A DNA stretch of 32,000 nt from Microcystis aeruginosa NIES-843. Its GTDB lineage: Bacteria > Cyanobacteriota > Cyanobacteriia > Cyanobacteriales > Microcystaceae. A program made the position numbers and the translations under genes. The notes below the pieces were generated by a model. The model did no database searches. It saw only the letters and a program-made list of their open reading frames with translations, and was not told where the DNA came from. Location: the NCBI RefSeq assembly GCF_000010625.1, contig NC_010296.1, positions 210,001 through 242,000 of the forward strand, given 5' to 3'. Below, piece after piece: positions 5,131 to 31,755 of the stretch. Position 1 is the stretch's first letter, and every line of letters begins with the position of its first letter.

Positions 5131-5236
5131 TTAAGTAAGTAGTTATAATTAAATTAAAAATAGATTTTGCCTCTGATCCCCCCTGCCCCCCTTAATAAGG
5201 GGGGTGTCTGACAACTTTTAACAACTACCTACTTAA
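5131..5236. mobile_element. MITE-like element, copy A (TIRs TTAAGTAAGTAGTT / AACTACCTACTTAA, internal C6-TTAATAA-G6 palindrome)
   Basis: 13/14 matching terminal inverted repeats. Shares the blocks TTATAATTAAATTAAAAATAGATTTT, GATCCCCCCTGCCCCCC and TCTGAyAAyTTTTAAC with the copy at 27782-27936 and partly with 15089-15166/16754-16800. Confidence 0.65.
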
Positions 5237-5623
5237 CTGCTCGATTAATCCAATAACTTTAGCCTTAATTTCATCGCGAACTCGGCGAAAAGTTTCGATG
5301 GGTTGACCATCGGGATCATCAATTAACCAATCCTCGAAAATTTCCTGTAAAACCCATCCTTCCGGCAGATTGACACCGCAACCACATAGGGAGATAACGG
5401 CATCGTAATCTTCAGGATTAAAATCCCTAATTGATTTGGAAGTTTGGTCAGTAATATCGATGCCAATTTCCTGCATAACTTCGATTGCCCCGGGATGAAC
5501 TTTGGCCGCTTCTAATCCAGAACTGGTGACAGCAATTTTACCCGCACCTAAAGTTTTAGCGAAACCTTCGGCGATTTGGGAACGACAGGAATTTTTTCTA
5601 CAGGCAAACATGACTTTTTTCAT
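5225..5623 (-). CDS. arsC: arsenate reductase, LMW-PTPase-type ArsC
   Basis: N-terminal CX5R P-loop (FACRKNSCRSQIAEG) and size as in Synechocystis-type ArsC. Last gene of an ars operon. Confidence 0.85.
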   Translation of the reverse strand: MKKVMFACRKNSCRSQIAEGFAKTLGAGKIAVTSSGLEAAKVHPGAIEVMQEIGIDITDQTSKSIRDFNPEDYDAVISLCGCGVNLPEGWVLQEIFEDWLIDDPDGQPIETFRRVRDEIKAKVIGLIEQLSR

Positions 5624-5646
5624 GATTTTAACTCCTAGAAATTGAT

Positions 5647-6294
5647 TTAATTAATAGCTTTATGGGCAATTGTGGCTATTTCTTGGGCGGCTTTTTCCTT
5701 CCTTTCACTATAGCGATCGGTCAGATAATCTACCTGATCCCGCAGGAGAATGGTAAACTTATAAAGTTCCTCCATCACATCAATAACCCGATCTCGATAG
5801 GGGGAATCTTTCATCGTGCCATCCTCGTGAAACTCCTGATAAGCTTTAGCCACAGAAGATTGATTAGGAATAGTAAACATTCGCATCCAACGACCAAGAA
5901 TTCGCAGAGTATTAACCGCGTTAAAAGATTGGGAACCTCCGCTTACTTGCATGACTGCTAAAGTGCGGCCTTGAGTGGGACGAATCGCACCAATACTTAA
6001 GGGAATCCAATCAATTTGGTTTTTGATAATGCCGCTAATATTGCCGTGAAGTTCGGGAGATGACCAGACTTGACCCTCAGACCATTGACTTAATTCTCGT
6101 AATTCCTGTACTTTGGCATGAGTATCGGGAACACTGCCATAAATCGGCAATTCACGGGGATCAAAAAAGCGCACTTCTGCCCCATATTCAGTGATAATTC
6201 TGGCCGCTTCTTCTGCTAGTAAACGACTGTAGGAACGTTCCCGCAAAGAGCCATACAGAAAAAGAATCCTTGGTTTGTGAGTCGATTGGAGCAT
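5647..6294 (-). CDS. arsH: arsenical resistance protein ArsH (NADPH-dependent FMN reductase family)
   Basis: [22 protein letters not shown] motif, about 215 aa, located between acr3 and arsC. Confidence 0.9.
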
Positions 6295-6303
6295 GGTGAA
6301 TAA

Positions 6304-7449
6304 TTATTTGTAAGAACTCAAGCAACGAGGATCGAGAAGGGTGGCTTTTTCTGGATCTCTGGGAAACCAAAAGGCGGTTTTTTTACAGAATTCTACCAAC
6401 ATTAACATCACAGGTACTTCAATCAATACCCCCACTACTGTCGCTAAAGCGGCCCCCGAATTCAATCCGAATAACATCACCGCAGTGGCGATTGCGACCT
6501 CAAAATGATTACTAGCACCAATTAAAGCAGCGGGAGCCGCATCTTCGTAAACTAAATTGAGTTTGAGAGCGGCCACATAACTAAGTAAAAAAATCAGATT
6601 AGTTTGAATAAACAGGGGAATAGCAATCAGGAAAATATGCAGGGGATTACTAACAATTAAATCGCCTTTGAAAGCAAAGAGGAGGATTAAGGTTAACAAT
6701 AAGGCAGTGATTGCCACAGGACTGAGATAGTGAAGAAAACGCGATTCAAACCAGGCGCGTCCTTTATGTTTAAAAATCCAGTGACGGCTATAGATACCAG
6801 CAATAAGCGGTAAACCAACGTAGATTAACACAGAAAAAACAATGGTCTGCCAAGGGACTACAAAATTATTAGCTGCCAGTAACCATTTACCTAGAGGAGC
6901 GTAGAGAAAAAGCATCGCTAGGGAATTGACTGCTACCATAATTAGGGTATGACCCTGGTTACTGTAGGAAAGATAGCCCCACATCAAGACCATGGCCGTA
7001 CAGGGAGCAATTCCTAGTAAAATAGCTCCAGCAGTGTAGGAACTAGCTAAACTTACCGTCTGTCCTCGGATAATCTCCGTTTGACTCAACCAAGGCAGAA
7101 ACAGCCAGCCGAGAAAAAATTGAGCCAGCGCCACCATGGTAAAGGGTTTGATCAGCCAATTAACCACTAAAGTTAAAATAACTGGTTTGGGAGTACGGGC
7201 AGCCCGAAGAGCTTGAGAAAAGTCGATCTTAACCATGATCGGATACATCATGAAGAAAAGACAGATGGCGATCGGAATAGAAACGTTATAGATACTCATG
7301 GCATCTAAAGTCTGCGCTACGTCCGGAAATGACCGACCGAGGGCAATTCCCGCCAAAATACAGAAAATAACCCAAAGGGTAAGGTATTTTTCAAAAATAC
7401 TAAGGCTACCGCCAGCTTTGGCGGCTTTAGGATTGATTTGATTAGTCAT
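6304..7449 (-). CDS. acr3: arsenite efflux permease, ACR3 family
   Basis: Polytopic membrane protein with an ACR3-like N-terminus ([20 protein letters not shown]). ATG at 7449 preferred over the upstream TTG at 7488 used by the track. Confidence 0.9.
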
Positions 7450-7496
7450 CGCACAAAGGTGGAAAGGGAATAATGGGAGATTGGGCAACCCACCTT

Positions 7497-7525
7497 TATT
7501 ATTTCAAAAAAAGTTGATATGTCAA
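7497..7525 (-). promoter_or_regulatory. candidate acr3 promoter (minus strand TTGACA-17 nt-ATAATA) overlapping an imperfect palindrome TTGATATGTCAA
   Basis: -35 is the reverse complement of 7520-7525 and -10 of 7497-7502. The palindrome at 7514-7525 is a possible ArsR operator. Confidence 0.3.
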
Positions 7526-7574
7526 GGGTAAAAGCTAGTCATAAAGCTTTAATATTTCTAAAAATCTTGATCGG

Positions 7575-7913
7575 TTACTGATTTTCCTCGCAGAAACGAG
7601 CGGGGACGAGGGCGGCAAAACGACGATATTCGGATAGATATTCTTCTAGGAGAAGAAATTGAGATAGATTCAGGCTGTAGTAGATCCAACGACCCTCTTG
7701 ACGACTGCGGACTAAATTAGCTTCTTTTAGCGTTTTTAGGTGAAAAGATAATTTAGATTGGGCGATATCGAGATGGTCGCGCAATTCACAGACGCATAAT
7801 TCCTGATGTCGCAACAGTTGCAAAATTTGCAGCCGTAGGGGATCCGAGAGTGCCTGAAAACCAGTGTAAATTTGGGTTAACGAGTCGGGAGATGTGGTCA
7901 GAGAGTTGAACAT
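7575..7913 (-). CDS. arsR: ArsR/SmtB family metalloregulator
   Basis: Winged-helix region LSDPLRLQILQLLRHQELCVCELRD with the ELCVC As(III)-binding cysteine pair. Directly upstream of acr3-arsH-arsC. Confidence 0.85.
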   Translation of the reverse strand: MFNSLTTSPDSLTQIYTGFQALSDPLRLQILQLLRHQELCVCELRDHLDIAQSKLSFHLKTLKEANLVRSRQEGRWIYYSLNLSQFLLLEEYLSEYRRFAALVPARFCEENQ

Positions 7914-15088: not shown

Positions 15089-15166
15089 GGTTCGATCCCC
15101 CCTGCCCCCCTTGATAAGGGGGGTGCCGATCCCCCCTTAATCCCCCCTTAATCCCCCCTTGATAAG
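15089..15166. repeat. left part of MITE-like palindromic element, copy B (split by the IS4-family insertion)
   Basis: GGTTCGATCCCCCCTGCCCCCCTTGATAAGGGGGGTGCCGAT...CCCCCCTTGATAAG is collinear with the reverse complement of 27782-27897. Confidence 0.65.
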
Positions 15167-16753
15167 CTATCCATTAGTCGGATCTTTCTTAACAAAAAGA
15201 GAAGAAACTTAAAAAAAGGGGAAACGATTGATAGGTATAGTTTTGAAAGAAGGAATTAAGGTGGAGGTAAGCAAAAAAATGGAGAAATGGGCAGCCCAAG
15301 AATTACAGTATGCAGACCTAGGGGACACCAGAAGAAAGAAAAGGTTAATCAGTATCGTGGAAAACTTGGCCAGTCAACCTAGTACAAGTGTGCCACAAGC
15401 TTCAGGAAATCTAGCCGCAGCGAGTGCCACCTACGACTTTTGGAATTCCCCCTATTTTCACCCCTCAGATATAATTGCCGCCCAGGCCAAAAGTACAGTA
15501 GAAAGAATCAAAGAACATCCAATAGTTTTGGCAGTGCAAGACACAACAAGTTTAGACTTTACGACGCAAAAAGCCAAAAAAGGCATGGGTTATCTAGATT
15601 ATAAAAAATCCTTTGGTCTCAAAGTTCATACCACCTTAGGAGTGTCCCCAGTCGGAATACCTTTAGGACTGATTAATCAATATGTCTGGGCAAGAGAAGA
15701 AAAGAATTTAGGGATTGCCAAGCAACGCAAAAAAAGAGAAACCCAAGAAAAAGAAAGTCAAAGATGGTTAGATTCTTTGTCAGAAACACAACAACAGATA
15801 CCCGAAGATATTCAAGTAGTAACAATCGGAGATTGTGAGGCAGACATATTTGATTTATTTGCCCAATCAAGAAGTCCTAACTCTCATTTATTAATTCGAG
15901 GAACTCATAACCGAAAAGTTAACTATCTCGAAGACAAGCAAAGGTCAGGGCATTCAGAGCCTAAATATTTACATCAATCCATCAGAGAAATAAAAGCCTG
16001 TGGGACCTTAGATGTGCAAGTAAAACGCAATCCTAATCACGAGGCTAGACTAGCTAAACTAACAGTTAGATTTGCCAGTTTTGAAATACAAGTACCTAGC
16101 CATCACTCCAAGGCGACCCCTCGTCAACCGGTCAAATTACAGGTAATTTTAGCTGAAGAAGAAAATCCGCATAGCGGAGTTAATCCTATCAGTTGGCTGC
16201 TCTTAACTAGCCTAGACATTAGTAGCTTTGAATCAGCGATAACCTGTGTGCGCTGGTATAGTTATCGCTGGTTAATAGAACGCTATCATTTTGTTTTAAA
16301 AAGTGGTTGTGGATTAGAAAAACTGCAATTAGAAACGGGTAGGAGAATTGAGATGGCCTTAGCTACCTATTCAATTGTAGCTTGGAGATTACTTTGGTTA
16401 ACCTATCAAGCACGCTTACACGGAGAGGAGAGTTGTGAAAGTTTTTTGGAAGAACATGAATGGCAATCTTTGTGTGCCACTATTCATAAAAAGAGTCCGC
16501 CACCTGAAAAGCCGCCCTCCTTTCGAGAAGCGGTCAGAATGATTGCTTCTCTTGGGGGGTTTTTAGGTAGAAAAGGTGACGGTGAACCTGGTGTTAAAAC
16601 TATTTGGTTGGGACTGCGAAGGTTACATGATATCAGCCAGACTTGGAAACTATCTCATCAAATTAGTCCCCCTATAGAACCCCCTTGAGCCATCTGGCAC
16701 ACTTTTCTCTTTTTGTCAAATTTTATGTTAAGAAAGATGTGACTAATGGATAG
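15167..16753 (+). mobile_element. IS4-family insertion sequence (1587 bp) with ~28-bp imperfect IRs and a 9-bp target duplication CTTGATAAG
   Basis: Left end CTATCCATTAGTCGGATCTTTCTTAAC; reverse complement of the right end CTATCCATTAGTCACATCTTTCTTAAC. The direct repeat CTTGATAAG sits at 15158-15166 and 16754-16762. Confidence 0.85.
15279..16688 (+). CDS. IS4-family DDE transposase
   Basis: Tn5/IS4-like N-terminus (ADLGDTRRKKRL) and an exact Y-x2-R-x3-E-x6-K signature (YSYRWLIERYHFVLK). ATG at 15279 follows GGTGGAGG; the track ORF starts at an upstream TTG. Confidence 0.85.
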   Translation: MEKWAAQELQYADLGDTRRKKRLISIVENLASQPSTSVPQASGNLAAASATYDFWNSPYFHPSDIIAAQAKSTVERIKEHPIVLAVQDTTSLDFTTQKAKKGMGYLDYKKSFGLKVHTTLGVSPVGIPLGLINQYVWAREEKNLGIAKQRKKRETQEKESQRWLDSLSETQQQIPEDIQVVTIGDCEADIFDLFAQSRSPNSHLLIRGTHNRKVNYLEDKQRSGHSEPKYLHQSIREIKACGTLDVQVKRNPNHEARLAKLTVRFASFEIQVPSHHSKATPRQPVKLQVILAEEENPHSGVNPISWLLLTSLDISSFESAITCVRWYSYRWLIERYHFVLKSGCGLEKLQLETGRRIEMALATYSIVAWRLLWLTYQARLHGEESCESFLEEHEWQSLCATIHKKSPPPEKPPSFREAVRMIASLGGFLGRKGDGEPGVKTIWLGLRRLHDISQTWKLSHQISPPIEPP

Positions 16754-16800
16754 CTTGATAAGGGGGGTGTCTGATAATTTTTAACGCCTACCTACTTATA
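16754..16800. repeat. right part of MITE-like element, copy B (includes the 9-bp TSD)
   Basis: CTTGATAAGGGGGGTGTCTGATAATTTTTAACGCCTACCTACTTATA matches the tail of copies A and C. Confidence 0.65.
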
Positions 16801-16862: not shown

Positions 16863-19241
16863 ATGGACGATAAAACCACAAAGCCAGAAGCATCCGAATC
16901 TGAAGAGAAAAAAGAATCAGATTTTGAACAGGAAAGTAAACAGGCTGAAGTTTGGACGGGAAAAATCACTGCTTTTGTTGCCCATCAACTCCGAACCTCC
17001 GCTCCTTCCCTTCCAATTGTCGGGGGTAGCATTACAGGCATCTTAACTTGGCTTAGTCAACATGACACGGTTAAGGCGATTATTGTCGGGGGAGTCACCT
17101 TTATCGTCACGGGCTTTTTTACCTAAGGATCAGCCTGGAGTCAAGGGTTTTTAGAAACAGCAAGAACCAAAGGTAAAAATCATGGTAAAGGTACAGCCTT
17201 AAGCTTTTTTGTTTGGCTAGACAAAGGACTGGAAAAAATACGTTGGCAATTAGCCAATCCTGACGGGAAATATTTAATTAAATTACGGGATTCAGATTGT
17301 CGTTATGATGATATTGAAGGGATTGAAGATGCAATCTTTGGTTTTTCTACTCCGGAACTAGAAGAAATTTTTATTAATTTGGATCTGAGTCAATTAGAAC
17401 TGCGCTCAGAAGAAGAGTCTAAAGGTACGGGGGATGATATTTGGGATTTATTGCGACGGGCTAAAAAGAGGACAAATTTACGGTTGTTAATTCTGGCTCC
17501 TGGTGGACGAGGAAAAACAACTTTATTGCGTCATTTAGCCTATAACTACGCTCTAAAACAACCGAAACAAAATGCACCTTTTTTAATTCCTGTCTTTTTA
17601 CGTTTACGGAGATGGCAGGAAGTGATTACCACCACAGAAGGATTAGATTTACCGACTTTAATTGAGCGACATCTTAAACAAGATATTTCTCAAGAATTAG
17701 ATTTACCTCAGAACTGGGCTAAAAGTCATTTAACCCGTCAGCGAATGTTAGTGATGTTTGATGGTTTTGATGAAGTTAAACCCGAATATGCCGAAAAAGT
17801 CAGTCAATGGATTGGCAAACAGTGGCATGATTTTCGCCAAAACTATTTTATTTTAACCTCTCGTCCCAAAGGCTATCAAGCGTTTCGCTCTGAGCATAAA
17901 CCTCGGCAAAAGGTGTTTATTAATGAATTTACCGATAAAAATATTCGGGATTTTGTGTATAAATGGTATTTCTGGCAAGAGCAGGAAACCAGAGTTAGCA
18001 GAAGTTTAAAAGCTAAACAAGAAGCTGCCGACAATAAAGCAAAGGATTTAATTAATCAGTTATTTGCTCTCGATGATTCCGAGGAAAGTTCTACTCTATT
18101 AGCCTTGGCGAGAAATCCCTTAAATCTGAATATGATAGTACAGTTACATCGGGCAAACTTTGGCTCGGGACAAAAATTACCTCAGCAACGAGTGGATTTA
18201 TTTCGCCGAATTTTTGATCTGCAATTGATCACTCGCCCTCAAGCTAGGGGCATTGATATGATTTTAGATAATAATGAGGAAAATCATCGTCAACGGGTAT
18301 TACAACAATTAGCCCTGAAAATGGGAAATACAACCACGATTGAATATTCGGAATTACTGAGTTCTATACAAAATTTTATTCAGGAATTGGGTTATCCTGA
18401 AAGCACTTCGGCTAAGGATTTTGTAGAGCGGTTAATTCATGTGAGCGAGTTAATTTTGAAAAGGGATGAATACTATGAGTTTGCCCATAATTTTTTTCAA
18501 TCCTATTTAATTGCTTTGGAAGTTAAACGGTTAAAGCAGGAAAATTTACTCTGGGAAAATTGGGAGCAAAATCTCTGGTACGAGGCTTGTATTATGTATG
18601 CCACTTTATTGATTAATCCGACTGATTTTATTGTGTATTTCTATAATAAAGAAGATAATCCTAAAGCTCAGGGATTAGCGGAGCGATGTTATCGAGAATT
18701 ACCTGTTAAAAAACGTCGAGGTTTGGAATTTTTAGAACAAAAACGACAGACTTCTCTCTTTACCCAACTAGAAACCTATCTGAAAAATGGCCAATGGCGC
18801 GAAGCCGATGAGGAAACGGCGCGGTTAATGTTGTTAATTGCTAAAAGGGAAGATGAAGGCTGGCTAGATGAAGAAAGCATTAACAACTTTCCCTGTGAAG
18901 AGTTACGCACGATTGATAAGCTCTGGGTAGATAATAGCGGCGGCAAATTTGGCTTTTCTGTGCAGAAAAAAGTCTGGCTGGATTGCGGTGGTGTCCCAGG
19001 GAAGTACGATTATGAGGTGTATGAAAAATTTGCCGACGAGGTGGGTTGGCGCAGGGGCGGAGACTGGTTGAGCTATGATCAGCTAACTTTTTTATTAGAT
19101 GGTAGTAAACACGCACACCTACCTCACCTGATATATGGTTGGGATATAAAAGAGTGGGTAGATCGAGGGGTAGAAGTTAGAATCTCTTTTCTCGCGCAGC
19201 GACTTGTAACCTGTAATATATCACAGACTTATACATCTTAA
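16863..19241 (+). pseudogene. NACHT (STAND) NTPase with a C-terminal GUN4-like domain, interrupted by one in-frame TAA at 17124-17126
   Basis: The 16863-17126 and 17379-19241 ORFs share a frame. The 84 codons between them are open and contain no ATG/GTG/TTG. Walker A APGGRGKTTLL, Walker B LVMFDGFDEV. C-terminus WREADEETARLML...FPCEELRTIDKLWVDNSGGKFGFSVQKKVW...VGWR matches the GUN4 porphyrin-binding domain. Confidence 0.7.
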
Positions 19242-19400
19242 ACCAGTAAAAAGCCCCCCTTATCAAGGGGGGTTGGGGGGATCAAACCTATGCAATTAAC
19301 CAATTATTTTAAACCAGTAAAAAGCCCCCCTTATCAAGGGGGGTTGGGGGGATCAAATTCAACCAGTAAAAAGCCCCCCTTGATAAGGGGGGCTAAGTAC
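19242..19400. repeat. three copies of AACCAGTAAAAAGCCCCCCTT(A/G)AT(C/A)AAGGGGGG... palindromic units
   Basis: Units start at about 19242, 19312 and 19361. The spacer after the first unit repeats the first ~18 nt of the downstream gene (ATGCAATTAACCAAT). Confidence 0.75.
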
Positions 19401-19429
19401 GGTAACATGACTAACCAGAAAGTAAGCTT

Positions 19430-19864
19430 ATGCAATTAACCAATCATCATCATCTACCCTACAATCCCAAACTCGTAGAACGAGCCAAAGAACTCCGTAA
19501 AAATATGACCAAAGCTGAAAGAAAACTTTGGTATGAATACTTAAAAAATTTTCAATATAGAGTTCATCGTCAAAGACCGATTGATCAATTTATTGTTGAC
19601 TTTTATTGCCCAGAATTAAAATTAGTGATTGAAATTGATGGTGATAGTCATAATAGGGAAGATGCTCAGAACTATGACTTAGAAAGAACCCAAATTTTAT
19701 CAGGTTATGGATTAACAGTAATCCGCTTTACTAATCAAGAAGTTTTGAGTAATTTTGAGGGAGTTTGTGGAGTAATTGGAAGTTTGATCCCCCCAACCCC
19801 CCTTGATAAGGGGGGCTTTGATCCCTCCTTATTAAGGGGCTTTGATCCCCCCAACCCCCCTTGA
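19430..19864 (+). CDS. DUF559 endonuclease-domain protein (Vsr-like restriction-endonuclease fold) with a repeat-encoded C-terminal tail
   Basis: Typical DUF559 pattern: MTKAERKLWYEYLK...HRQRPIDQFIVDFYCPELKLVIEIDGDSH...D..RT..L...GL.VIRFTNQEV. The last ~25 codons (PPTPLDKGGFDPSLLRGFDPPNPP) are read from palindromic repeats. Confidence 0.7.
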   Translation: MQLTNHHHLPYNPKLVERAKELRKNMTKAERKLWYEYLKNFQYRVHRQRPIDQFIVDFYCPELKLVIEIDGDSHNREDAQNYDLERTQILSGYGLTVIRFTNQEVLSNFEGVCGVIGSLIPPTPLDKGGFDPSLLRGFDPPNPP

Positions 19865-19928
19865 TAAGGGGGGCTTTGATCCCTCCTTATTAAGGGGGAT
19901 CTGACAATTTTTAACACCTAACTAATTA
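19783..19928. repeat. two tandem ~53-bp palindromic units plus a TCTGACAATTTTTAAC tail, inverted relative to 19242-19400
   Basis: TTTGATCCCCCCAACCCCCCTTGATAAGGGGGGC is the reverse complement of the unit core at 19242-19400. The tail resembles MITE copies A, B and C. Confidence 0.75.
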
Positions 19929-19952: not shown

Positions 19953-21374
19953 GGCTCTTCGGGAATTGTTATGCAAATAATTAACTTAAAATAAAATTCG
20001 ATGAGAGCGCCTACGCTCAAAAGTAGCTGAAATCCATACAGGGAAGGACTTAAGGCACAAACAGGTTAATACCAAAAGATAGACAATTGAGTTAAGATTT
20101 GATATAATAGCCAAAAACGAGATTATTTTACTTATGATACTTGACAAATTTTTGAACCTAAAAGGAACCTGTATTCAAGGCTATCTACACCTAGAAAATA
20201 TCGGTATAGTTTGCCGAATCGAATCGAAAAATCAAAAAGCAACCTGTCCTCGTTGTGGGTTAGAGAGCGATAAACTCCACCAAAATCATCGACATTTAGT
20301 CAAAGATTTACCAATCTCAGGTCAACCAGTATACCTACAAGTTAATCGTCGTCAATTTAAGTGCGATAATTGTCAGAGACCCTTTAGCGAAGAGTTAGAT
20401 TTTGTCGCCAAGAAACGAACCTATACGAAAAGACTAGCCGCAAATATACTCGAACAATTAAAAGAAGGAGATATTTTAAATGTTAGTCGAATAAATGACG
20501 TAACGGAAGAAGAGATTCAAAGAATGATAGAGGACATCGCCGAAGAAATTACAGAGCCAGACCTATCGGAATTAAAAAGACTAGGAATTGATGAAATCGC
20601 TCTAGTCAAAGGACAAAAAAATTACTGTGCGGTTTTAGTAAATTTAGATACGGGAAAACTAATAGCTATTCTAGAGAAGCGAACACAAGAAGAGTTGAGA
20701 GAAACGCTTACGGGCTGGGGAAAAGAGGTGTTAGAGCAAATTGAAGAAGTGAGCATAGACCTTTGGTTGCCTTATAAAAATTTGGTGAAAGAATTGATGC
20801 CATCGGCCGAAGTAGTCGCCGATAGATTCCATGTAATGAAACAAATTAATCAAGAGTTAGACGAACAGAGAAGAGCAGAAAAAAGAGCCGTAGAAGCGCA
20901 GAAAAATAAAAAACAGAAAGCAGAAAAAGAAGCCAAGCTAGAAGTTTTAAAGCGAAGTAAATATAGCCTGTTAAAAAATGAAGAAGATTTAACGGAACCC
21001 CAAAAAATTAAACTAGAAGCTATCAAAGAAAAATTCCCAAATTTGAAAAAGATGCAGGAATTAAAGGAAGAATTTAGAAAGATTTATGAAACCTCAGAGA
21101 ATCCGACAGAGGGAATGCTATCCATCTCGGAATGGTTGGCAAAATCCTCCAGTGTTTTTACCAAGAGTTGTCAAACAATCCGAAACTGGTTTGGAGAAAT
21201 AATTAGTTATTTCGAGCGAAGGACAACGAATGGGGTGGTCGAAGGAATCAACAATAAACTTAAACTAATAAAACGGAGAGGCTATGGCTTTAGAAACTTT
21301 CGGAATTTTTGGGTTAGAAGTATGTTATCTTGGCATCTTGTATGTTGATTTAGCATAAAGGGTAACGAAGAGCC
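19953..21374 (+). mobile_element. ISL3-family insertion sequence (1422 bp) with GGCTCTTCG terminal IRs and an 8-bp target duplication CCAAAAAG
   Basis: Left end GGCTCTTCGGGAATTG; reverse complement of the right end GGCTCTTCGTTACCC. Direct repeat at 19945-19952 and 21375-21382. Confidence 0.85.
20134..21348 (+). CDS. ISL3-family transposase
   Basis: N-terminal zinc-finger pattern (CPRCG...CDNCQ), DDE region (GIDEIALVKGQKNY...VSIDLW...VADRFHV) and C-terminal NGVVEGINNKLKLIKRRGYGFRNF. Confidence 0.9.
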   Translation: MILDKFLNLKGTCIQGYLHLENIGIVCRIESKNQKATCPRCGLESDKLHQNHRHLVKDLPISGQPVYLQVNRRQFKCDNCQRPFSEELDFVAKKRTYTKRLAANILEQLKEGDILNVSRINDVTEEEIQRMIEDIAEEITEPDLSELKRLGIDEIALVKGQKNYCAVLVNLDTGKLIAILEKRTQEELRETLTGWGKEVLEQIEEVSIDLWLPYKNLVKELMPSAEVVADRFHVMKQINQELDEQRRAEKRAVEAQKNKKQKAEKEAKLEVLKRSKYSLLKNEEDLTEPQKIKLEAIKEKFPNLKKMQELKEEFRKIYETSENPTEGMLSISEWLAKSSSVFTKSCQTIRNWFGEIISYFERRTTNGVVEGINNKLKLIKRRGYGFRNFRNFWVRSMLSWHLVC

Positions 21375-22698: not shown

Positions 22699-22761
22699 CA
22701 GGCTCTATCCTTCAAACAAGATATAATCAGGTTATTGTCAAGTTAATTCAGAGGAAAAATT

Positions 22762-23408
22762 ATGACCACCACCGCCGATGACGTTTGGAGATTATTAGCC
22801 GAATTAGTAGAAGCTCAAAAAGAGACAGAAAGATGCTTTCAAGAAACCGAGCGACGCTTTCAAGAAACCGAGCGGATTCTCAAAGAACAATCTTTAGAAA
22901 CCGAGCGACGCTTTCAAGAAACCGAGCGGATTCTCAAAGAACAATCTTTAAAAACTGATCGCCAAATTACCAGAGTCAGTCAAGAAATTGGTAATCTTGG
23001 CGGTAAATGGGGACGTTTTGTCGAAAATATGGTAGCCCCAGCTTGTGAGACTTTATTTTTAAATCGTCAGATTCCCGTACATCAAGTTAGTCAAAGAGTC
23101 AGAAAACGTCTCGACGGTAAAACCTTAGAAATTGATGTGTTAGTAACTAATGAAAATCATGTGCTAGTAGTGGAAGTCAAAAGTAGTTTAAGTGTAGATG
23201 ATGTCAAAGAATTAATCAAGAATCTAACAGAATTTAGACAATTTTTCCAGAATATAACCACAAACAATTATATGGGGCAGTAGCAGGCATTGAAATCGAA
23301 GAAGGAGCAGATAAATATGCCTATCGTCAAGGTTTATTTGTCTTGGCACAAAGGGGTGAAAATGTAGCGATTCTTAACGATACTGAGTTTCAACCAAAAA
23401 CTTGGTAG
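22762..23408 (+). pseudogene. tandem paralogue 1: coiled-coil / PD-(D/E)XK-like protein, frameshifted by a 1-nt deletion in a T tract
   Basis: Nearly identical to copies 2 and 3. T5CC at 23242-23248 versus T6CC in copy 2 truncates the ORF at 23283. The out-of-frame remainder to 23408 still matches copy 2. Confidence 0.75.
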
Positions 23409-23465
23409 GGGCTTTAAAAACAAGATGTAATCAGGTTATTGTCAAGTTAATTCAGAGGAAAAATT

Positions 23466-24080
23466 ATGACCACCACCGCCGATGACGTTTGGAAATTATT
23501 AGCCGAATTAGTAGAAGCTCAAAAAGAGACAGAAAGATGCTTTCAAGAAACCGAGCGACGCTTTCAAGAAACCGAGCGACGCTTTCAAGAAACCGAGCGT
23601 ATTCTCAAAGAACAATCTTTAAAAACCGATCGCCAAATTACCAGAGTCAGTCAAGAAATTGGTAATCTTGGGGGTAAATGGGGTCGTTTTGTCGAAAATA
23701 TGGTAGCCCCAGCTTGTGAGACTTTATTTTTAAATCGTCAGATTCCCGTACATCAAGTTAGTCAAAGAGTCAGAAAACGTCTCGACGGTAAAACCTTAGA
23801 AATTGATGTGTTAGTAACTAATGAAAATCATGTGCTAGTAGTGGAAGTCAAAAGTAGTTTAAGTGTAGATGATGTCAAAGAATTAATCAAGAATCTAACA
23901 GAATTTAGACAATTTTTTCCAGAATATAACCACAAACAATTATATGGGGCAGTAGCAGGCATTGAAATCGAAGAAGGAGCAGATAAATATGCCTATCGTC
24001 AAGGTTTATTTGTCTTGGCACAAAGGGGTGAAAATGTAGCGATTCTTAACGATACTGAGTTTCAACCAAAAACTTGGTAG
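23466..24080 (+). CDS. tandem paralogue 2: N-terminal ETERRFQ heptad coiled coil plus a C-terminal PD-(D/E)XK-like domain (204 aa)
   Basis: Intact ORF with its own AGAGGA SD. LEIDVLV...LVVEVKS gives a D...E-x-K pattern typical of the restriction-endonuclease fold. The function call is inference. Confidence 0.7.
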   Translation: MTTTADDVWKLLAELVEAQKETERCFQETERRFQETERRFQETERILKEQSLKTDRQITRVSQEIGNLGGKWGRFVENMVAPACETLFLNRQIPVHQVSQRVRKRLDGKTLEIDVLVTNENHVLVVEVKSSLSVDDVKELIKNLTEFRQFFPEYNHKQLYGAVAGIEIEEGADKYAYRQGLFVLAQRGENVAILNDTEFQPKTW

Positions 24081-24137
24081 GGGCTTTAAAAACAAGATGT
24101 AATCAGGTTATTGTCAAGTTAATTCAGAGGAAAAATT

Positions 24138-24707
24138 ATGACCACCACCGCCGATGACGTTTGGAAATTATTAGCCGAATTAGTAGAAGCTCAAAAAGAG
24201 ACAGAAAGATGCTTTCAAGAAACCGAGCGCCGCTTTCAAGAAACTGATCGCCAAATTACCAGACTCAGTCAAGAAATTGGTAATCTTGGGGGTAAATGGG
24301 GTCGTTTTGTCGAAAATATGGTAGCCCCAGCTTGTGAGACTTTATTTTTAAATCGTCAGATTCCCGTACATCAAGTTAGTCAAAGAGTCAGAAAACGTCT
24401 CGACGGTAAAACCCTAGAAATTGATGTGTTAGTAACTAATGAGAATCATGTGCTAGTAGTGGAAGTCAAAAGTAGTTTAAGTGTAGATGATGTCAAAGAA
24501 TTAATCAAGAATCTAACAGAATTTAGGCAATTTTTCCCAGAATATAACCACAAACAATTATATGGGGCAGTAGCAGGCATTGAAATCGAAGAAGGAGCAG
24601 ATAAATATGCCTATCGTCAAGGTTTATTTGTCTTGGCACAAAGGGGTGAAAATGTAGCGATTCTTAACGATACTGAGTTTCAACCGAAAACGTGGTATAA
24701 TATTTAA
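24138..24707 (+). CDS. tandem paralogue 3: same family, shortest coiled coil (189 aa)
   Basis: Intact ORF, near-identical to copy 2 except for missing heptad modules and a different last 3 codons. Confidence 0.7.
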   Translation: MTTTADDVWKLLAELVEAQKETERCFQETERRFQETDRQITRLSQEIGNLGGKWGRFVENMVAPACETLFLNRQIPVHQVSQRVRKRLDGKTLEIDVLVTNENHVLVVEVKSSLSVDDVKELIKNLTEFRQFFPEYNHKQLYGAVAGIEIEEGADKYAYRQGLFVLAQRGENVAILNDTEFQPKTWYNI

Positions 24708-24830
24708 GCTTGTCTTTGGGAAAGTCCAGTGCAATTCTGGTACTGTGCCGCAGCTGTAATCAAGTAAAAAGTAAAAAGAGTACATCTTCCCTTTTTCCTT
24801 GCGAGTCAGAATGCCAATTACAAGTTTTTA
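24707..24830 (+). promoter_or_regulatory. probable cobalamin (B12) riboswitch upstream of cobG-cobH-cobI
   Basis: GGGAAAGTCCAGTGCAATTCTGGTACTGTGCCGCAGCTGTAA fits the conserved core (GGGAA..GGTG.AA.TCC...CCGC.ACTGTAA). B12-box-like GAGTCAGAATGCC. Possible P1 pairing CTTGT (24709-24713) with ACAAG (24819-24823). Sits in front of B12 biosynthesis genes. Confidence 0.6.
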
Positions 24831-24892
24831 ATCGGTAGATAGACAAATAATTTTCTAACTACTTCTCTGCGTCGCATGGAGAACACACAAAG

Positions 24893-27781: not shown

Positions 27782-27936
27782 ATAAGTAGGTAGGCGTTAA
27801 AAATTATCAGATGCCCCCCTTATCAAGGGGGGATTAAGGGGGGATCCCCCCGCCTATCGGCACCCCCCTTATCAAGGGGGGCAGGGGGGATCGAACCTAA
27901 AATCTATTTTTAATTTAATTATAACCAGCTACTTAA
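27782..27936. mobile_element. MITE-like element, copy C (inverted relative to copies A and B; two C6-TTATCAA-G6 palindromes)
   Basis: Its reverse complement is collinear with 5131-5236 (TIR, A/T-rich block, GATCCCCCCTGCCCCCC) and with 15089-15166 plus 16763-16800. Confidence 0.65.
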
Positions 27937-27983: not shown

Positions 27984-30641
27984 ATGTCCGATTCTCCTGA
28001 ATCTATCCGCAATACTAGCGTCAGCGATCAAGCTACTAATAATGATGCTCTCGGATTTGAGCCTTATGTAATAGCGATCGCTGAATTTTTGTTGCATCAG
28101 CAGACACAACCACCCCTAACTTTATCGGTTGAGGGAGAGTGGGGTAGTGGCAAGTCTTCTTTTATGAAAATGTTAGAGGAATATTTACGAAAAAAGGGAG
28201 GTCGGACGGTTTGGTTTAATGCTTGGCGACACGATAAGGCGGAGTCGGTATGGGCAGCCTTTGCGCTGTCTTTTATTAAGCAGATTTCTACGCCCAAAAA
28301 TTGGCGAGATTTGCCTCGAATTATCCTAGTACACTTTAAATTACAATTATTGCGTTTTAACTTAGAAAAAGGCTTGTTTGAATTAATTAAAGCTTTACCA
28401 GTAATAATTTTTGTGATTTGTGCCTCAATTGCCATTCCCTTTATTTTAATCGGTTATGGCGTTGAAGGAATTAACGAATTAATCAGAGCAACAACCTCTC
28501 AAGATGTTTTTTGGAGCAAAATTAATTCAGTTTTTAAATTATTATTTACTGCGGTCGGTGTCACCTTATCAGGAGCGGGGATTTTCGCTGGTATTAAGAG
28601 TTTATTGAGAAATTTTCAAAGGTTACTCCAAAACCCCAAAAACAACCTAATTAAATATATAGAAGCCCCAGATTATAAAAAACAATCGGCATTTGTAGAA
28701 GAATTTCATGAAGATTTTGCTAAAATTGTCGATGCCTATGTTGGCAATGATCGGGTATATGTATTTATTGACGATTTAGATCGTTGTGAACATCCAAAAT
28801 CAGCGGACTTGATGCAAGCGATTAATTTGATGATTGCTGATGATCCTTCAGTGGTGTTTATTTTAGGAATGGACAGAGAAAAAGTAGCCGCTAGTTTAGC
28901 GGTAAAATACGAAAACATTCTCAAGTATTTACCGTCGGAAACCACAGAAATTGATCCTGATATTTTAGCGAGACGTAGTGCTAATAAAGGGTTAGCTTAT
29001 GGTTATACCTTTATTGAAAAGTTTGTCCAGCTTCCCTTTTTAGTTCCCCAACCATCCCGGTCAGATTTTGAGCGTTTTTTGATTCAGCTTGCTACTTCAA
29101 CTCCTCCCAATTTACAGCCAGCTAAACCTCGTTTTACATTTTTTCAGTCATTCTGGGGTAAGTTTAAGTTAGCTTTACCCTGGAGAAATAATTCGCAAAA
29201 GCATCTCACTTCTGCAACAAGTAATCAGACAAGTGATTTAAAAAACTTGTCTCTAGATAATCCTTCGATAGAATCTGAACAAACCGAAAAAGAGAAAGCA
29301 CGAGCATCTGTAATTAAGCGATTAGAAGCGATTCAAGTCAACAAATCTGATAATAGAGATTCCCAAACAGTGCGGAATATCATTATGATGGTGGCTCCCG
29401 CATTGGATTACAATCCGCGACGGATTAAACACTTTATCAATGTCTTTCGTCTCAAGGTTTATATCGCTAATGAAACTGGTTTATTTTTTGAGGAGCGAGA
29501 TGAGAATGATAATTTGTTAGATCCTTCTTTGACTTTTGAACAGTTAGGTAAATTTACTGCCATTAGTTTAAAATGGCCATTGTTATTATCAGATTTAGAA
29601 AATGATAAGCGAATTTTAGCAAAACTAGAAGAATTTGCACTAGATGAAGAAAAAACCAAAGAATATGAAGAGTCGCTTCGCTATTGGGGTAGTCATATTA
29701 AGCTAAAAGCTTTAATGGCTTACGGTCATGACAAATTGGCAGCTAACTCTAAATTTAGCTTGGCAGAGGTAAATGTTGATAAATTATTACAAGTATCACC
29801 CAAGGTAATTCGGTTAGATAATGAGCCTATTCAACAAAAACAAATTTCCGATATTGAAATTATCCAAAAGATTACCTCATTGCCTCATATTAAAATTAGC
29901 CAAAATATTACCTCATTGCCTCCAGACTTTCACTTAGAAATGGTGGATATACCCGCCGGTAAATTTAACATGGGTTCTAATCAGTATGAAGATGAAAAAC
30001 CGATACATGAAGTAATTGTGCCAGCATTTCAGATAGGCAAATATCCCGTAACCCAAGCACAGTATCAAGCGGTGATGGGATATAATCCTTCGATAGCGGC
30101 ATATTATCCTTTAAAGTTTTCAGGAAATCCCCAGAACCCGGTAGAATCCATTAGTTGGTTTAATGCTCAAGCTTTTTGTGAAAACCTGAGCCAGTTAACT
30201 GGAAAAAACTACCGTTTGCCTACAGAAACAGAATGGGAATATGCCTGTCGCGCTGGTACAGAAACCCTATTTAGTTTTGGCGATGATAAAGATAAACTAG
30301 GAGATTATGCCTGGTTTCGTGCTAATTCAAATAATACAACCCATCCTGTTGGGGAAAAACAGCCTAATCCTTGGGGAATTTATGATATGCACGGCAATGT
30401 TTGGGAATGGTGTGCTGATGAATATCATGAAAGTTATGTTAATAAACCAGAAAATATTAAAGAAAATGGCAGTATTCCATGGTATGGTGGTTATTTAAGT
30501 ACCAAACCATCACTTCGTGGCGGCGCTTGTGACTCCTATCCCGGGCTTTGCCGTTCCGCATATCGCGGCGACAGCGATGTTCACGGCCAGGGACACGGTT
30601 TTCGTGTTGTGTGCGATCTCCCCCAATCAGTTAACAGTTAA
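27984..30641 (+). CDS. KAP-family P-loop NTPase (two inserted TM helices) fused to a C-terminal FGE-sulfatase/SUMF1-type domain
   Basis: Walker A GEWGSGKSSF. Hydrophobic helices at about aa 135-165 and 185-205. Walker B-like VYVFIDDLDRC. C-terminal motifs YPVTQAQY, SWFNAQAFC, RLPTETEWEYACRAG, NPWGIYDMHGNVWEWC, GFRVVC. Confidence 0.8.
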   Translation: MSDSPESIRNTSVSDQATNNDALGFEPYVIAIAEFLLHQQTQPPLTLSVEGEWGSGKSSFMKMLEEYLRKKGGRTVWFNAWRHDKAESVWAAFALSFIKQISTPKNWRDLPRIILVHFKLQLLRFNLEKGLFELIKALPVIIFVICASIAIPFILIGYGVEGINELIRATTSQDVFWSKINSVFKLLFTAVGVTLSGAGIFAGIKSLLRNFQRLLQNPKNNLIKYIEAPDYKKQSAFVEEFHEDFAKIVDAYVGNDRVYVFIDDLDRCEHPKSADLMQAINLMIADDPSVVFILGMDREKVAASLAVKYENILKYLPSETTEIDPDILARRSANKGLAYGYTFIEKFVQLPFLVPQPSRSDFERFLIQLATSTPPNLQPAKPRFTFFQSFWGKFKLALPWRNNSQKHLTSATSNQTSDLKNLSLDNPSIESEQTEKEKARASVIKRLEAIQVNKSDNRDSQTVRNIIMMVAPALDYNPRRIKHFINVFRLKVYIANETGLFFEERDENDNLLDPSLTFEQLGKFTAISLKWPLLLSDLENDKRILAKLEEFALDEEKTKEYEESLRYWGSHIKLKALMAYGHDKLAANSKFSLAEVNVDKLLQVSPKVIRLDNEPIQQKQISDIEIIQKITSLPHIKISQNITSLPPDFHLEMVDIPAGKFNMGSNQYEDEKPIHEVIVPAFQIGKYPVTQAQYQAVMGYNPSIAAYYPLKFSGNPQNPVESISWFNAQAFCENLSQLTGKNYRLPTETEWEYACRAGTETLFSFGDDKDKLGDYAWFRANSNNTTHPVGEKQPNPWGIYDMHGNVWEWCADEYHESYVNKPENIKENGSIPWYGGYLSTKPSLRGGACDSYPGLCRSAYRGDSDVHGQGHGFRVVCDLPQSVNS

Positions 30642-30693
30642 CAGTTAACTTTTATCAGTTGGGGGCCACTATTGGCGCAATAATATTATTGTA

Positions 30694-30714
30694 GGGGCGA
30701 ATTGCATTCGCCCT
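30694..30714. other. GC-rich hairpin GGGGCGAAT-TGC-ATTCGCCC(T), about 55 nt downstream of the KAP-FGE stop
   Basis: 8 perfect base pairs plus a G-T wobble, 3-nt loop, no strong T run after it. Confidence 0.4.
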
Positions 30715-30968: not shown

Positions 30969-31208
30969 ATGCGTGCGATTGAAACCACTGGTATCCTCAA
31001 TACCCAGGGACAAATTCAACTTGATCATCCTATTCCCCAAGAAAAAGATCGGTTTGTACGCGTCATTCTTTTGATGTCGGAGGATGAACTGAACGAAAAA
31101 AACTGGCTAGATGCCGTTTCCCATAACCCTAGCTTTGCTTTTCTGCAAGATACCGAAGAAGATATTTATACCCTTAACGATGGACAACCTGTAACTAATG
31201 AAGGGTAA
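30969..31208 (+). CDS. putative antitoxin of the downstream MazF/PemK-like gene
   Basis: 79-aa ORF. Its stop overlaps the start of the toxin-like ORF (ATG at 31198). Assignment is by position and size only. Confidence 0.45.
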   Translation: MRAIETTGILNTQGQIQLDHPIPQEKDRFVRVILLMSEDELNEKNWLDAVSHNPSFAFLQDTEEDIYTLNDGQPVTNEG

Positions 31209-31755
31209 AATTGTATTAATTCAATTTCCCTTCGACGATTTATCTTCCAGTAAGGTTCGTCCTGCTTATTGCCTAACCAATCAAATTGGAGGCTATCAAC
31301 ACATTATCTTTGCCCTAATTAGGGTTTGCTGAAAAAGTTTTTCTTGGGGGCAGGGTGTGGGGTGTGGGGTGTGGGGTGTAGGGTTTTACCGATTTTGAAG
31401 GGGTCAATTACCTAATTTTCAGGGAAAAAGTCCCTGAATTTTCCCCCCGATCACTCCCATATCTGGTACTTTTTGATTGACAAAAACTCTAAAAGTCTTA
31501 ACCAACAAGGGTTTTACCATTATTCAGCCAGCCCTAATTACCAGTCGTATTCCAGAAAATCCCCTTCATACAGATATTATTCTGAGACCAGAAAGTCCAG
31601 ATTTTATGATCAGTGGTCTTCGCCAATCGTCAGCCATCAGACTTGATCATTTAGTAACACTTCGATCTTCACTGATTCAGCGTGAACTAGGCTCATTATC
31701 ATTAAAAACACAAACCTTAATTGTAGATATTTTGTCCGATATTCTACGTTCTTAA
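31198..31755 (+). pseudogene. MazF/PemK-family toxin gene split by a 219-bp MITE insertion
   Basis: N-terminal part 31198-31320 (MKGKIVLIQFPFDDLSSSKVRPAYCL...HIIFALI) and C-terminal part 31540-31755 (TSRIPENPLHTDIIL...SAIRLDHLVTL...) join in frame to a typical ~113-aa PemK-like protein once 31321-31539 is removed. Confidence 0.7.
31321..31539. mobile_element. MITE inserted in the mazF-like gene (ends TAGGGTTTGCTGAA / TTCAGCCAGCCCTA; GCCCTAATT present on both sides)
   Basis: Imperfect TIRs read directly. The 9-nt GCCCTAATT occurs at 31312-31320 and 31531-31539, so the TSD/TIR boundary is ambiguous. Contains a (GGGGTGT)n tract. Confidence 0.6.

Follow-up and report, generated by a model that had tools for sequence, protein, structure and literature searches.

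The locus analysed here raises two connected questions: what a single gene that couples a KAP family P-loop NTPase to a C-terminal FGE-sulfatase domain is for, and how the very variable stretch near its 3' end came about. The gene occupies positions 27984..30641, with an ATG start and 885 encoded amino acids, in a 32,000-nucleotide stretch of Microcystis aeruginosa NIES-843 (contig NC_010296.1, positions 210,001 to 242,000; hereafter the window, whose numbering is used throughout; features are on the forward strand unless stated). A first-pass annotation, made from the letters of the window and a list of its open reading frames (ORFs), had delimited the gene exactly; what we regard as its main feature, a hypervariable 3' cassette of the type found in diversity-generating retroelements (DGRs), was absent from that annotation. 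The reading that we favour, with a probability of roughly 0.6, is that the gene encodes a membrane-tethered KAP NTPase with a cytoplasmic lectin sensor, and that the cassette encoding the sensor surface descends from a DGR variable region (VR), is now orphaned, and is kept as a set of recombining allele classes.

The protein and its hypervariable cassette

Pfam profile searches place both parts of the proposed fusion far above their cutoffs. The KAP_NTPase profile (PF07693) matches residues 26-311 (28059..28916) with 118.9 bits against a cutoff of 20 (E 3e-34), and FGE-sulfatase (PF03781) matches residues 652-876 (29937..30611) with 165 bits against a cutoff of 23.3 (E 3e-48), covering profile positions 4-254 of 255, i.e. 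a complete domain. More than 100 Microcystis orthologue clusters share this architecture, and variation was assessed in an alignment of 50 Microcystis orthologues, which are 81-93% identical overall. Walker A (GEWGSGKSS, residues 51-59, 28134..28160) and Walker B (VYVFIDDLDRC, residues 258-268, 28755..28787), both taken from the translation, show no variation among them. The protein has only two strongly hydrophobic segments, and both lie between these motifs, the first at about residues 136-158 (28389..28457, peak of 2.9 in a 19-residue Kyte-Doolittle window) and the second, rich in Gly and Ala, at about residues 183-207 (28530..28604, peak of 1.9); this is the KAP hallmark, and the two transmembrane (TM) helices that had been proposed there agree with the hydropathy profile. 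Residues 361-650, between the two domains, have no domain assignment. Searched against PDB sequences, the N-terminal 626 residues gave no meaningful match; the best match of the C-terminal domain is TvpA (2y3c, E 1.5e-28), followed by PvdO, ToxD and FGE. TvpA has an FGE-type C-type lectin (CLec) fold in which the VR forms the binding site.

Variability is distributed very unevenly along this protein. The NTPase is near-invariant, with a column entropy of about 0-0.15 over residues 1-360 and pairwise differences per codon of 0.026, 0.008 and 0.045 at codon positions 1, 2 and 3, while entropy reaches its maximum, about 1.0-1.1, over residues 839-873, and is otherwise raised mainly in two linkers. 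The maximum corresponds to a DGR-VR-like cassette of about 115 nucleotides (nt) at 30482..30596 (about residues 834-871, 56% GC), whose core at 30516-30610 has 62% GC and 11.6% A; the gene as a whole has 37% GC and 32% A. The cassette has sharp edges: the DNA alleles are near-identical until CCATGG (Pro-Trp) and again from GGTTTTCGTGTT. Within it, fixed residues (RGG ... (C/S)SA.R ... GFRVVC) are interspersed with positions at which as many as seven different residues occur. Directly downstream lies the anchor GGTTTTCGTGTTGTGTGCGATCTCCCC (30597..30623, encoding GFRVVCDLP), at the position of the DGR homing segment (IMH, initiation of mutagenic homing) and identical in all DNA-aligned alleles; among the 50 orthologues, two show a GAT to GGT change (D to G) in the anchor, at an adenine. 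As a separate observation, Microcystis ichthyoblabe (L096:1900-2075, proteins P0106/P0107) carries a 27-nt in-frame duplication (AWRDNNITN twice) in the 5' part of the cassette.

The 50 orthologues fall into six cassette classes with 34, 10, 3, 1, 1 and 1 members, the window belonging to the class of ten. Divergence between classes is about 41% in the cassette, 6-11% in the adjoining lectin codons and 1-4% in the NTPase. Backbone and cassette have largely separate histories: NTPase distances are unlinked to cassette class (0.0235 within classes, 0.0257 between them), and linkage is partial for the lectin sequence beside the cassette (0.105 within versus 0.183 between). Identical cassettes are found on backbones 10-12% apart, and cassettes 54% apart on backbones that are only 3% apart. 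The variable sites of the major class are mostly biallelic, in haplotype blocks common to independent samples. By these comparisons the gene is a mosaic, in which recombination has acted around old, persistent alleles of a putative recognition surface, a pattern that is expected under diversifying or balancing selection on such a surface.

Kinship of the cassette with DGR variable regions

The relation of the cassette to DGRs was examined with the pattern CGTGGCGG-N60-90-GGTTTTCGTGTTGT, built from the non-adenine scaffold only. It has a single match in the window (30516-30610), where none is expected by chance, and it retrieves 94 stretches from species-representative genomes of many phyla. 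In 13 of these 94 loci there are two copies 200-1300 bp apart, and eight of the 13 were verified as pairs of a VR and a template repeat (TR). The second copy is AAC-rich in all eight, and in the five pairs that can be compared in register every mismatch falls on a TR adenine. Adenine content is 8-16% in real VRs and 23-32% in real TRs, so the 11.6% of the cassette core is VR-like. The residues at variable positions also lean towards those reachable from AAY codons (Y, pyrimidine), which make up 142 of 156 in the cassette (91%) compared with 489 of 638 elsewhere (77%; p = 3.5e-5). By these similarities the cassette is homologous to DGR VR/TR sequences.

A cognate template was sought in the window, in four Microcystis species-representative genomes, in IMG/VR and in JGI metagenomes. 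A direct-repeat search found no TR within the 32-kb window, and a comparison of all its large ORFs with Pfam found no reverse transcriptase (RT) there; nor is there an RT within 10 kb of the gene in any of six orthologous loci with long flanks. The four genomes contain no second copy of the cassette, their sole pattern match being the orthologous gene, and IMG/VR gave zero matches to a phage-borne TR. The 23-mer anchor GGTTTTCGTGTTGTGTGCGATCT occurs ten times in the JGI metagenomes, nine times within the gene. The tenth, stand-alone copy (locus L104) was considered as a TR or silent donor and rejected: it is identical to the allele of strain KW, and the comparison has no adenine bias (variable columns at 9 of 33 A, 10 of 36 C, 9 of 37 G and 4 of 40 T). 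Its 3' flank is the rearranged flank of strain BLCC-F210 and its 5' flank an inverted segment from between a toxin-antitoxin (TA) module and dprA; to judge from these flanks, L104 is probably a rearrangement remnant or an assembly chimera. With regard to such rearrangements, one breakpoint lies at the 3' end of the gene in BLCC-F210 (L116:12520-13100) and another at the 5' edge of the cassette in L104 (reverse strand, 1381-2208); this may reflect hot spots of recombination at the edges of the cassette or, for L104, an artefact of chimeric assembly.

Only group II intron RTs are recorded for NIES-843 by myRT (PMC8934634). DGRs are listed, on the other hand, in M. aeruginosa NIES-2549 and NIES-4285 (Vallota-Eastman et al. 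2020, PMC7517822, supplement), and a cyanobacterial DGR RT was therefore taken as bait. The RT of L062 led to an RT cluster with a member from Microcystis aeruginosa L111-01, and from there to the DGR loci L118-L121; two other candidate bait sources were rejected, since L034 proved to be a stand-alone CLec gene and L039 carries, on reading its translation, a transposase-like ORF after the TR. The Microcystis DGR (L118:388-6274, also in L119-L121) comprises a vWA protein, a VMAP/FGE-sulfatase target, bAvd, the RT and a second FGE-sulfatase target, with its TR at L118:5114-5237. Its VRs show 18-20 adenine-specific mismatches. The element has phage-like genes (ArdC, Sipho_Gp157) and an integrase as direct neighbours, a hint that this DGR rides a mobile element.

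This DGR provides the reference against which the cassette can be judged. The two VRs of the element itself differ from the TR at 19 and 18 of 29 adenines, at 1 and 2 of 94 other positions, and in no gap columns. The six KAP-FGE cassette alleles are 61-68% identical to the same TR, with mismatches at 13-19 of 23-29 adenines (57-70%), at 22-28 of about 90 non-adenine positions (25-31%), and with 7-17 gap columns. Adenine-site enrichment is significant in each of the six alleles (p = 6e-5 to 6e-3). At the 3' end the cassettes carry GGTTTTCGTGTTGTGTGCGATCTCCCC, where the TR and VRs of the Microcystis DGR carry GGTTTTCGTGTGGTGTGTTCTGCGTCCAG. The cassette thus bears a trace of adenine-focused change, but the non-adenine mismatches, the gaps and the different 3' end together imply that the L118 DGR does not target it.

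One might still suppose that the cassette is an active target in trans, rewritten in DGR-bearing strains by mutagenic retrohoming from a TR elsewhere in the genome, possibly on a mobile element. Such DGRs do exist in the genus, in NIES-2549 and NIES-4285 (PMC7517822) and at L118-L121 with a clean adenine signature; the identity to the L118 TR exceeds the 50% threshold used for "remote VPs", i.e. remote variable proteins (PMC7517822), diversification in trans has been documented in another bacterium (PMC10907252), and the anchor change in two orthologues falls on an adenine. We nevertheless consider this unlikely: the 25-31% non-adenine mismatch of the cassettes stands against 1-2% in true VRs, besides the gap columns and the other homing segment, and no TR with the anchor of the cassette occurs in the four Microcystis genomes, IMG/VR or the JGI metagenomes. 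Moreover, independent samples share unchanged alleles, variable sites in the major class are mostly biallelic haplotype blocks, and divergence at codon position 3 equals that at positions 1 and 2.

The last point bears equally on an origin outside DGRs, by ordinary diversifying selection together with gene conversion between CLec paralogues or acquisition from other cyanobacteria, in which the scaffold (RGG...CRSA.R...GFRVV) would represent fold-determining residues only. Equal divergence at all codon positions, indels between classes and the strong recombination signal would all suit such an origin, as would the several CLec paralogues per Microcystis genome (seven in NIES-2549) and the existence of stand-alone CLec genes that have the scaffold with no RT nearby, L034 among them. 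What makes it an improbable account, in our judgement, is that the similarity extends to the nucleotide level, including synonymous scaffold positions, and is common to TRs; that the cassette is GC-rich and A-poor within a gene of 37% GC; that adenine sites are enriched against the Microcystis TR in six of six alleles and the residue repertoire leans towards the AAY-accessible set; and that no near-identical donor copy exists elsewhere in the four genomes scanned.

Several observations count against the reading favoured here, that of a DGR-derived surface on a membrane-tethered cytoplasmic sensor. Cassette divergence between classes is the same at the three codon positions (0.41, 0.40 and 0.415), and is accompanied by indels; this fits an old replacement of the whole segment and does not fit adenine mutagenesis of AAY codons. 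Position 3 thus diverges as much as positions 1 and 2, whereas the AAY repertoire and the adenine enrichment are present, and because of the equal divergence and the indels DGR ancestry is argued from scaffold homology, composition and adenine-site enrichment instead of a clean signature. The hypervariable block begins about 35 nt upstream of the canonical start of TR-VR homology. As for the template, the ten anchor copies in JGI point to thin sampling of Microcystis there, and the remainder of the NIES-843 genome beyond the window lay outside the scope of the search. On the protein side, no effector domain is recognisable in the sequence besides the TM hairpin. The first-pass annotation had also called for a structure prediction and for the TM topology: the AlphaFold2 model of the full-length protein, from a 25-sequence alignment, was unusable (mean predicted local distance difference test, pLDDT, 40; predicted template modelling score, pTM, 0.28), so no fold search or structural claim was built on it, and the two helices and their topology were judged from hydropathy alone. 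With all this weighed, the best reading of the cassette is a relic or orphan DGR variable region.

A candidate sensor and its relatives

The C-terminal domain is best read as a ligand-binding module and not as an enzyme. The FGE active-site cysteine pair, placed at alignment columns 895 and 901 by motif reading and not by alignment, is unconserved among the 50 orthologues, the first column having Cys in 27, Asp in 11, Phe in five and Asn in three, among others, and the second Cys in 33, Tyr in 14 and His in three; the segment that would hold this pair is the hypervariable cassette itself. Scores against the NCBIfam equivalog profiles fall far under their cutoffs (PvdO 103 against 500, EgtB 89 against 360, SenA 71 against 420, OvoA 41 against 400), and the DinB-like N-terminal iron-binding domain that is a trait of EgtB, OvoA and SenA is absent in the Pfam scan. 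The varying cysteine positions, the low equivalog scores and TvpA as the nearest solved relative lead us to consider the lectin domain non-enzymatic. The FGE-sulfatase domain would then be a binding module, as had been assumed from its occurrence in related proteins.

Orthologues are named "SUMF1/EgtB/PvdO family nonheme iron enzyme" in public records, and the fixed locus beside cobalamin-biosynthesis genes and dprA, described below, could likewise be taken to speak for a housekeeping role, with the C-terminal domain as an active non-haem iron or copper enzyme of the SUMF1/EgtB/PvdO type coupled to a membrane NTPase. That is very improbable in view of the PvdO, EgtB and SenA scores below cutoff without a DinB-like domain, the putative active-site cysteines that fall inside the hypervariable cassette, and neighbouring genes that vary by strain and have no functional link. 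As an observation on the records themselves, other orthologues bear the name "serine/threonine-protein kinase pkn1"; no kinase domain is found in the sequence, nor conserved catalytic residues for iron-enzyme or kinase activity. Neither activity being supported by the sequence, both names are seen as carry-over from the FGE-sulfatase domain, and the public names of these proteins mislead.

The proposed mode of action starts from the membrane. Two helices leave both termini on the same side, and because an NTPase needs nucleoside triphosphate that side would be the cytoplasm, so that the lectin domain would sense an intracellular ligand. We infer that the two-helix insert anchors the NTPase in the membrane, with the NTPase and lectin domains facing the cytoplasm. 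The binding surface of the lectin domain would be encoded by the cassette of about 115 nt descended from a DGR variable region, and homologous recombination would shuffle at least six diverged cassette classes onto an otherwise conserved gene. By analogy, binding of a ligand to the variable surface, most plausibly a molecule of a cyanophage or another invader, would act as a switch on the NTPase, with an output at the membrane. The same analogy makes the protein probably a cytoplasmic sensor acting against phage.

The analogy comes from several described systems. KAP NTPase plus CLec proteins are among the listed DGR targets (Dore et al. 2024, PMC10907252), where NTPase-CLec variable proteins of clade-5D DGRs are regarded as putative antigen sensors; the statement of the first-pass annotation that no characterised system of this architecture was known is therefore overstated. 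A TvpA-like hypervariable FGS domain, always at the C-terminus and frequent in cyanobacteria, is described from cyanobacterial conflict systems (Kaur et al. 2020, PMC7159879), and experiments have shown that single-gene KAP NTPases with diverse C-terminal regions protect against phage, for which Walker B and the C-terminal region are needed (PMC13552941). The sensing or conflict role that had been suggested for the gene is, accordingly, the one that this literature gives for the class, and its extension to the gene itself is by analogy.

The likeness to DGR NTPase-CLec proteins is detailed: the gene has a strictly C-terminal CLec domain, a variable region at the very 3' end, the RGG...CRSA.R...GFRVV nucleotide scaffold, an N-terminal NTPase and a colonial cyanobacterial host. 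Unlike them, it has no adjoining or detectable cognate TR, Avd or RT, and against the single Microcystis TR recovered it shows non-adenine mismatches and a different homing end. Its diversity also consists of a few stable recombining classes, in contrast to the strain-private adenine mutagenesis of active targets. CLec "VP homologs" without a TR match, and "remote VPs", have been described in cyanobacteria (Vallota-Eastman et al. 2020, PMC7517822), and the gene fits this category of VP homolog or orphan VR better than that of an active target. TvpA of Treponema denticola, a DGR variable protein, shares the FGE-type CLec fold of the C-terminal domain but is a lipoprotein without NTPase and part of a complete DGR.

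Membrane helices within the KAP NTPase and a variable C-terminal region are shared with EF_KAP (in which Walker B is required), with PifA of the F plasmid and with QatA; unlike in EF_KAP-type proteins, the C-terminal region here is a recognisable CLec domain. The QatA, PifA and PDC-S20 profiles give weak matches, confined to about 90 N-terminal residues (13-104), with QatA at 98.7 bits against a cutoff of 600. No QatBCD partner genes lie near the gene, its neighbours being cob genes, a TA remnant and dprA. By these profile and neighbourhood comparisons, the gene does not belong to Qat, PifA or PDC-S20. The ternary VMAP/MoxR-vWA systems (PMC7159879) also have a hypervariable C-terminal FGS domain, and the Microcystis DGR at L118 is of this type (vWA plus VMAP-FGE); the KAP-FGE gene has a KAP NTPase instead, with no vWA, MoxR or VMAP partner in the window or within 10 kb at orthologous loci, and is not a member of these systems either. 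Its architecture class is already published, and its own traits are the KAP NTPase, a genus-wide fixed locus, the orphaned cassette and discrete recombining classes.

The locus across Microcystis and its wider meaning

The gene had been described as accessory. A survey of its neighbourhood gives a different picture: it is found at the corresponding locus in every Microcystis genome examined, many named strains carry orthologues, and only small flanking insertions vary. Six orthologous loci with long flanks were compared. Five of the six have dprA, thioredoxin, acetate kinase and a sigma factor directly after the gene. On its upstream side, cobG/H/I-like genes are present in the window, KW, L113 and BLCC-F210 (L116), the last of which is rearranged downstream of the gene. 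Strains differ in the palindromic repeats, in rearrangements and in the TA module that separates the gene from dprA, which some lack and others have in intact or broken form. The accessory label does not hold, the locus being fixed throughout the genus. More distant KAP-FGE homologues (56-61% identity) are found among housekeeping genes. Such homologues (P0114, P0118) show no adjoining DGR cassette, within a downstream flank of less than 3 kb or nil. In clustering at 50% identity, end-to-end matches are limited to a few representatives (P0330, P0350, P0383), and many other proteins share only the KAP and middle regions.

Apart from the cassette, the variable parts of the gene are its linkers. 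A low-complexity inter-domain segment at 29094..29378 (about residues 371-465) has an entropy peak of 0.44-0.81, and pLDDT below 50 in a model that is poor overall. Further on, the duplicated linker that had been noted (KITSLPHIKISQ / NITSLPPD...) is a real 36-nt tandem duplication at 29851..29922 (Tandem Repeats Finder, TRF: period 36, 2.0 copies, 91% match). Since two ITSLP copies occur in two of the 50 orthologues, one in 15 and none in 33, it represents length polymorphism of a dispensable linker, without apparent significance. The end of the gene is also polymorphic. The 7-nt tandem repeat CAGTTAA spans the stop region (30628..30660; TRF and allele alignments) in a copy number that differs by strain, and a T/C polymorphism just upstream of it decides whether the protein ends in ...DLP* or ...DLPQSVNS*, the change of the stop from CCC TAA to CCC CAA (30620-30660) adding QSVNS to the C-terminus. 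A hairpin GGGCGAAT-TGC-ATTCGCCC can be read directly at 30695-30713; the terminator scan did not call it, and no functional conclusion is drawn from it.

In the 337-nt intergenic region upstream, two palindromic CCCCCCTTATCAAGGGGGG elements (27795..27895, no strand assigned) can be read directly. Elements of this kind (repeat families D5/D6) occur in at least five further places in the window. The element had been described earlier as a miniature inverted-repeat transposable element (MITE) immediately upstream; by its sequence it is repetitive and MITE-like. More generally, palindromic elements built around CCCCCCTT(A/G)ATCAAGGGGGG lie at 5172-5235, 15091-15154, 16754-16798, 19235-19406, 19783-19928 and 27795-27895, in intergenic positions and often as tandem pairs.

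Downstream, a TA remnant at 30969..31755 comprises a 79-amino-acid ORF (30969-31208) and a PemK/MazF toxin in two fragments (31198-31332 and 31477-31755), split by an insertion of about 145 nt that contains a GGGTGTG repeat of 4.6 units (31353-31384, TRF). The PemK match of the C-terminal fragment is weak (Pfam E 0.0016). Strain locus L114 has an intact pair of 79 and 112 (PemK) amino acids at the corresponding position, which makes the label of a decayed TA pair, given to it on first inspection, the right one. The antitoxin-like 79-amino-acid ORF is intact, and it is kept in several strains even where a DUF433/DUF5615 pair replaces the toxin.

Several other features were noted in the window. 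A 620-amino-acid NACHT and GUN4 fusion (17379-19241) is followed by a DUF559 endonuclease-like gene (19430-19864), a pair also present upstream of the KAP-FGE locus in KW and BLCC-F210; the NACHT and GUN4 architecture has been tied to cyanobacterial conflict systems (Kaur et al. 2020, PMC7159879). At 22714-24831 three tandem units of about 670 nt, 97-100% identical over most of the unit, each encode a NERD/PD-(D/E)XK/DUF3782-like protein; KW has three copies and BLCC-F210 (L116) six, so the copy number is strain-variable. Two transposase genes are apparently intact, of Tn5 type at 15228-16688 and of the ISL3 family at 20134-21348, the latter copy being missing from the matching interval in KW (L003). 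On the minus strand, an arsenic-resistance-like cluster (5225-7913) encodes an ArsC-like low-molecular-weight phosphatase, an ArsH-like FMN reductase, an SBF/ACR3-like transporter and an ArsR-family regulator.

The fixed locus and the discrete cassette classes also invite a bolder and rather doubtful extension, that of a core-genome gene resembling an immune receptor and holding a "frozen library" of DGR-written surfaces. These would form a long-maintained balanced polymorphism exchanged between Microcystis lineages, like the allelic series of the major histocompatibility complex or of plant NLR genes, perhaps occasionally rewritten by an incoming mobile-element DGR such as the vWA-VMAP-Avd-RT element of L118. 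If this were true, cassette alleles would track cyanophage genotypes in blooms.

Returning to the reading that we favour, of a DGR-derived sensor surface orphaned from its retroelement, its interest for the genus lies in the position of the cassette. Microcystis forms toxic blooms, in which strain turnover is thought to be partly cyanophage-driven. The cassette of about 38 codons, being the sole fast-evolving part of a fixed-locus gene, is a simple marker of host-parasite co-evolution within reach of the polymerase chain reaction. The gene also offers a manageable way to test the proposed "NTPase + CLec antigen sensor" class, of which, to our knowledge, no member has been characterised experimentally. 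For the family of DGR targets as a whole, it would show the fate of a target after loss of the retroelement, when diversity persists as discrete alleles moved by recombination.

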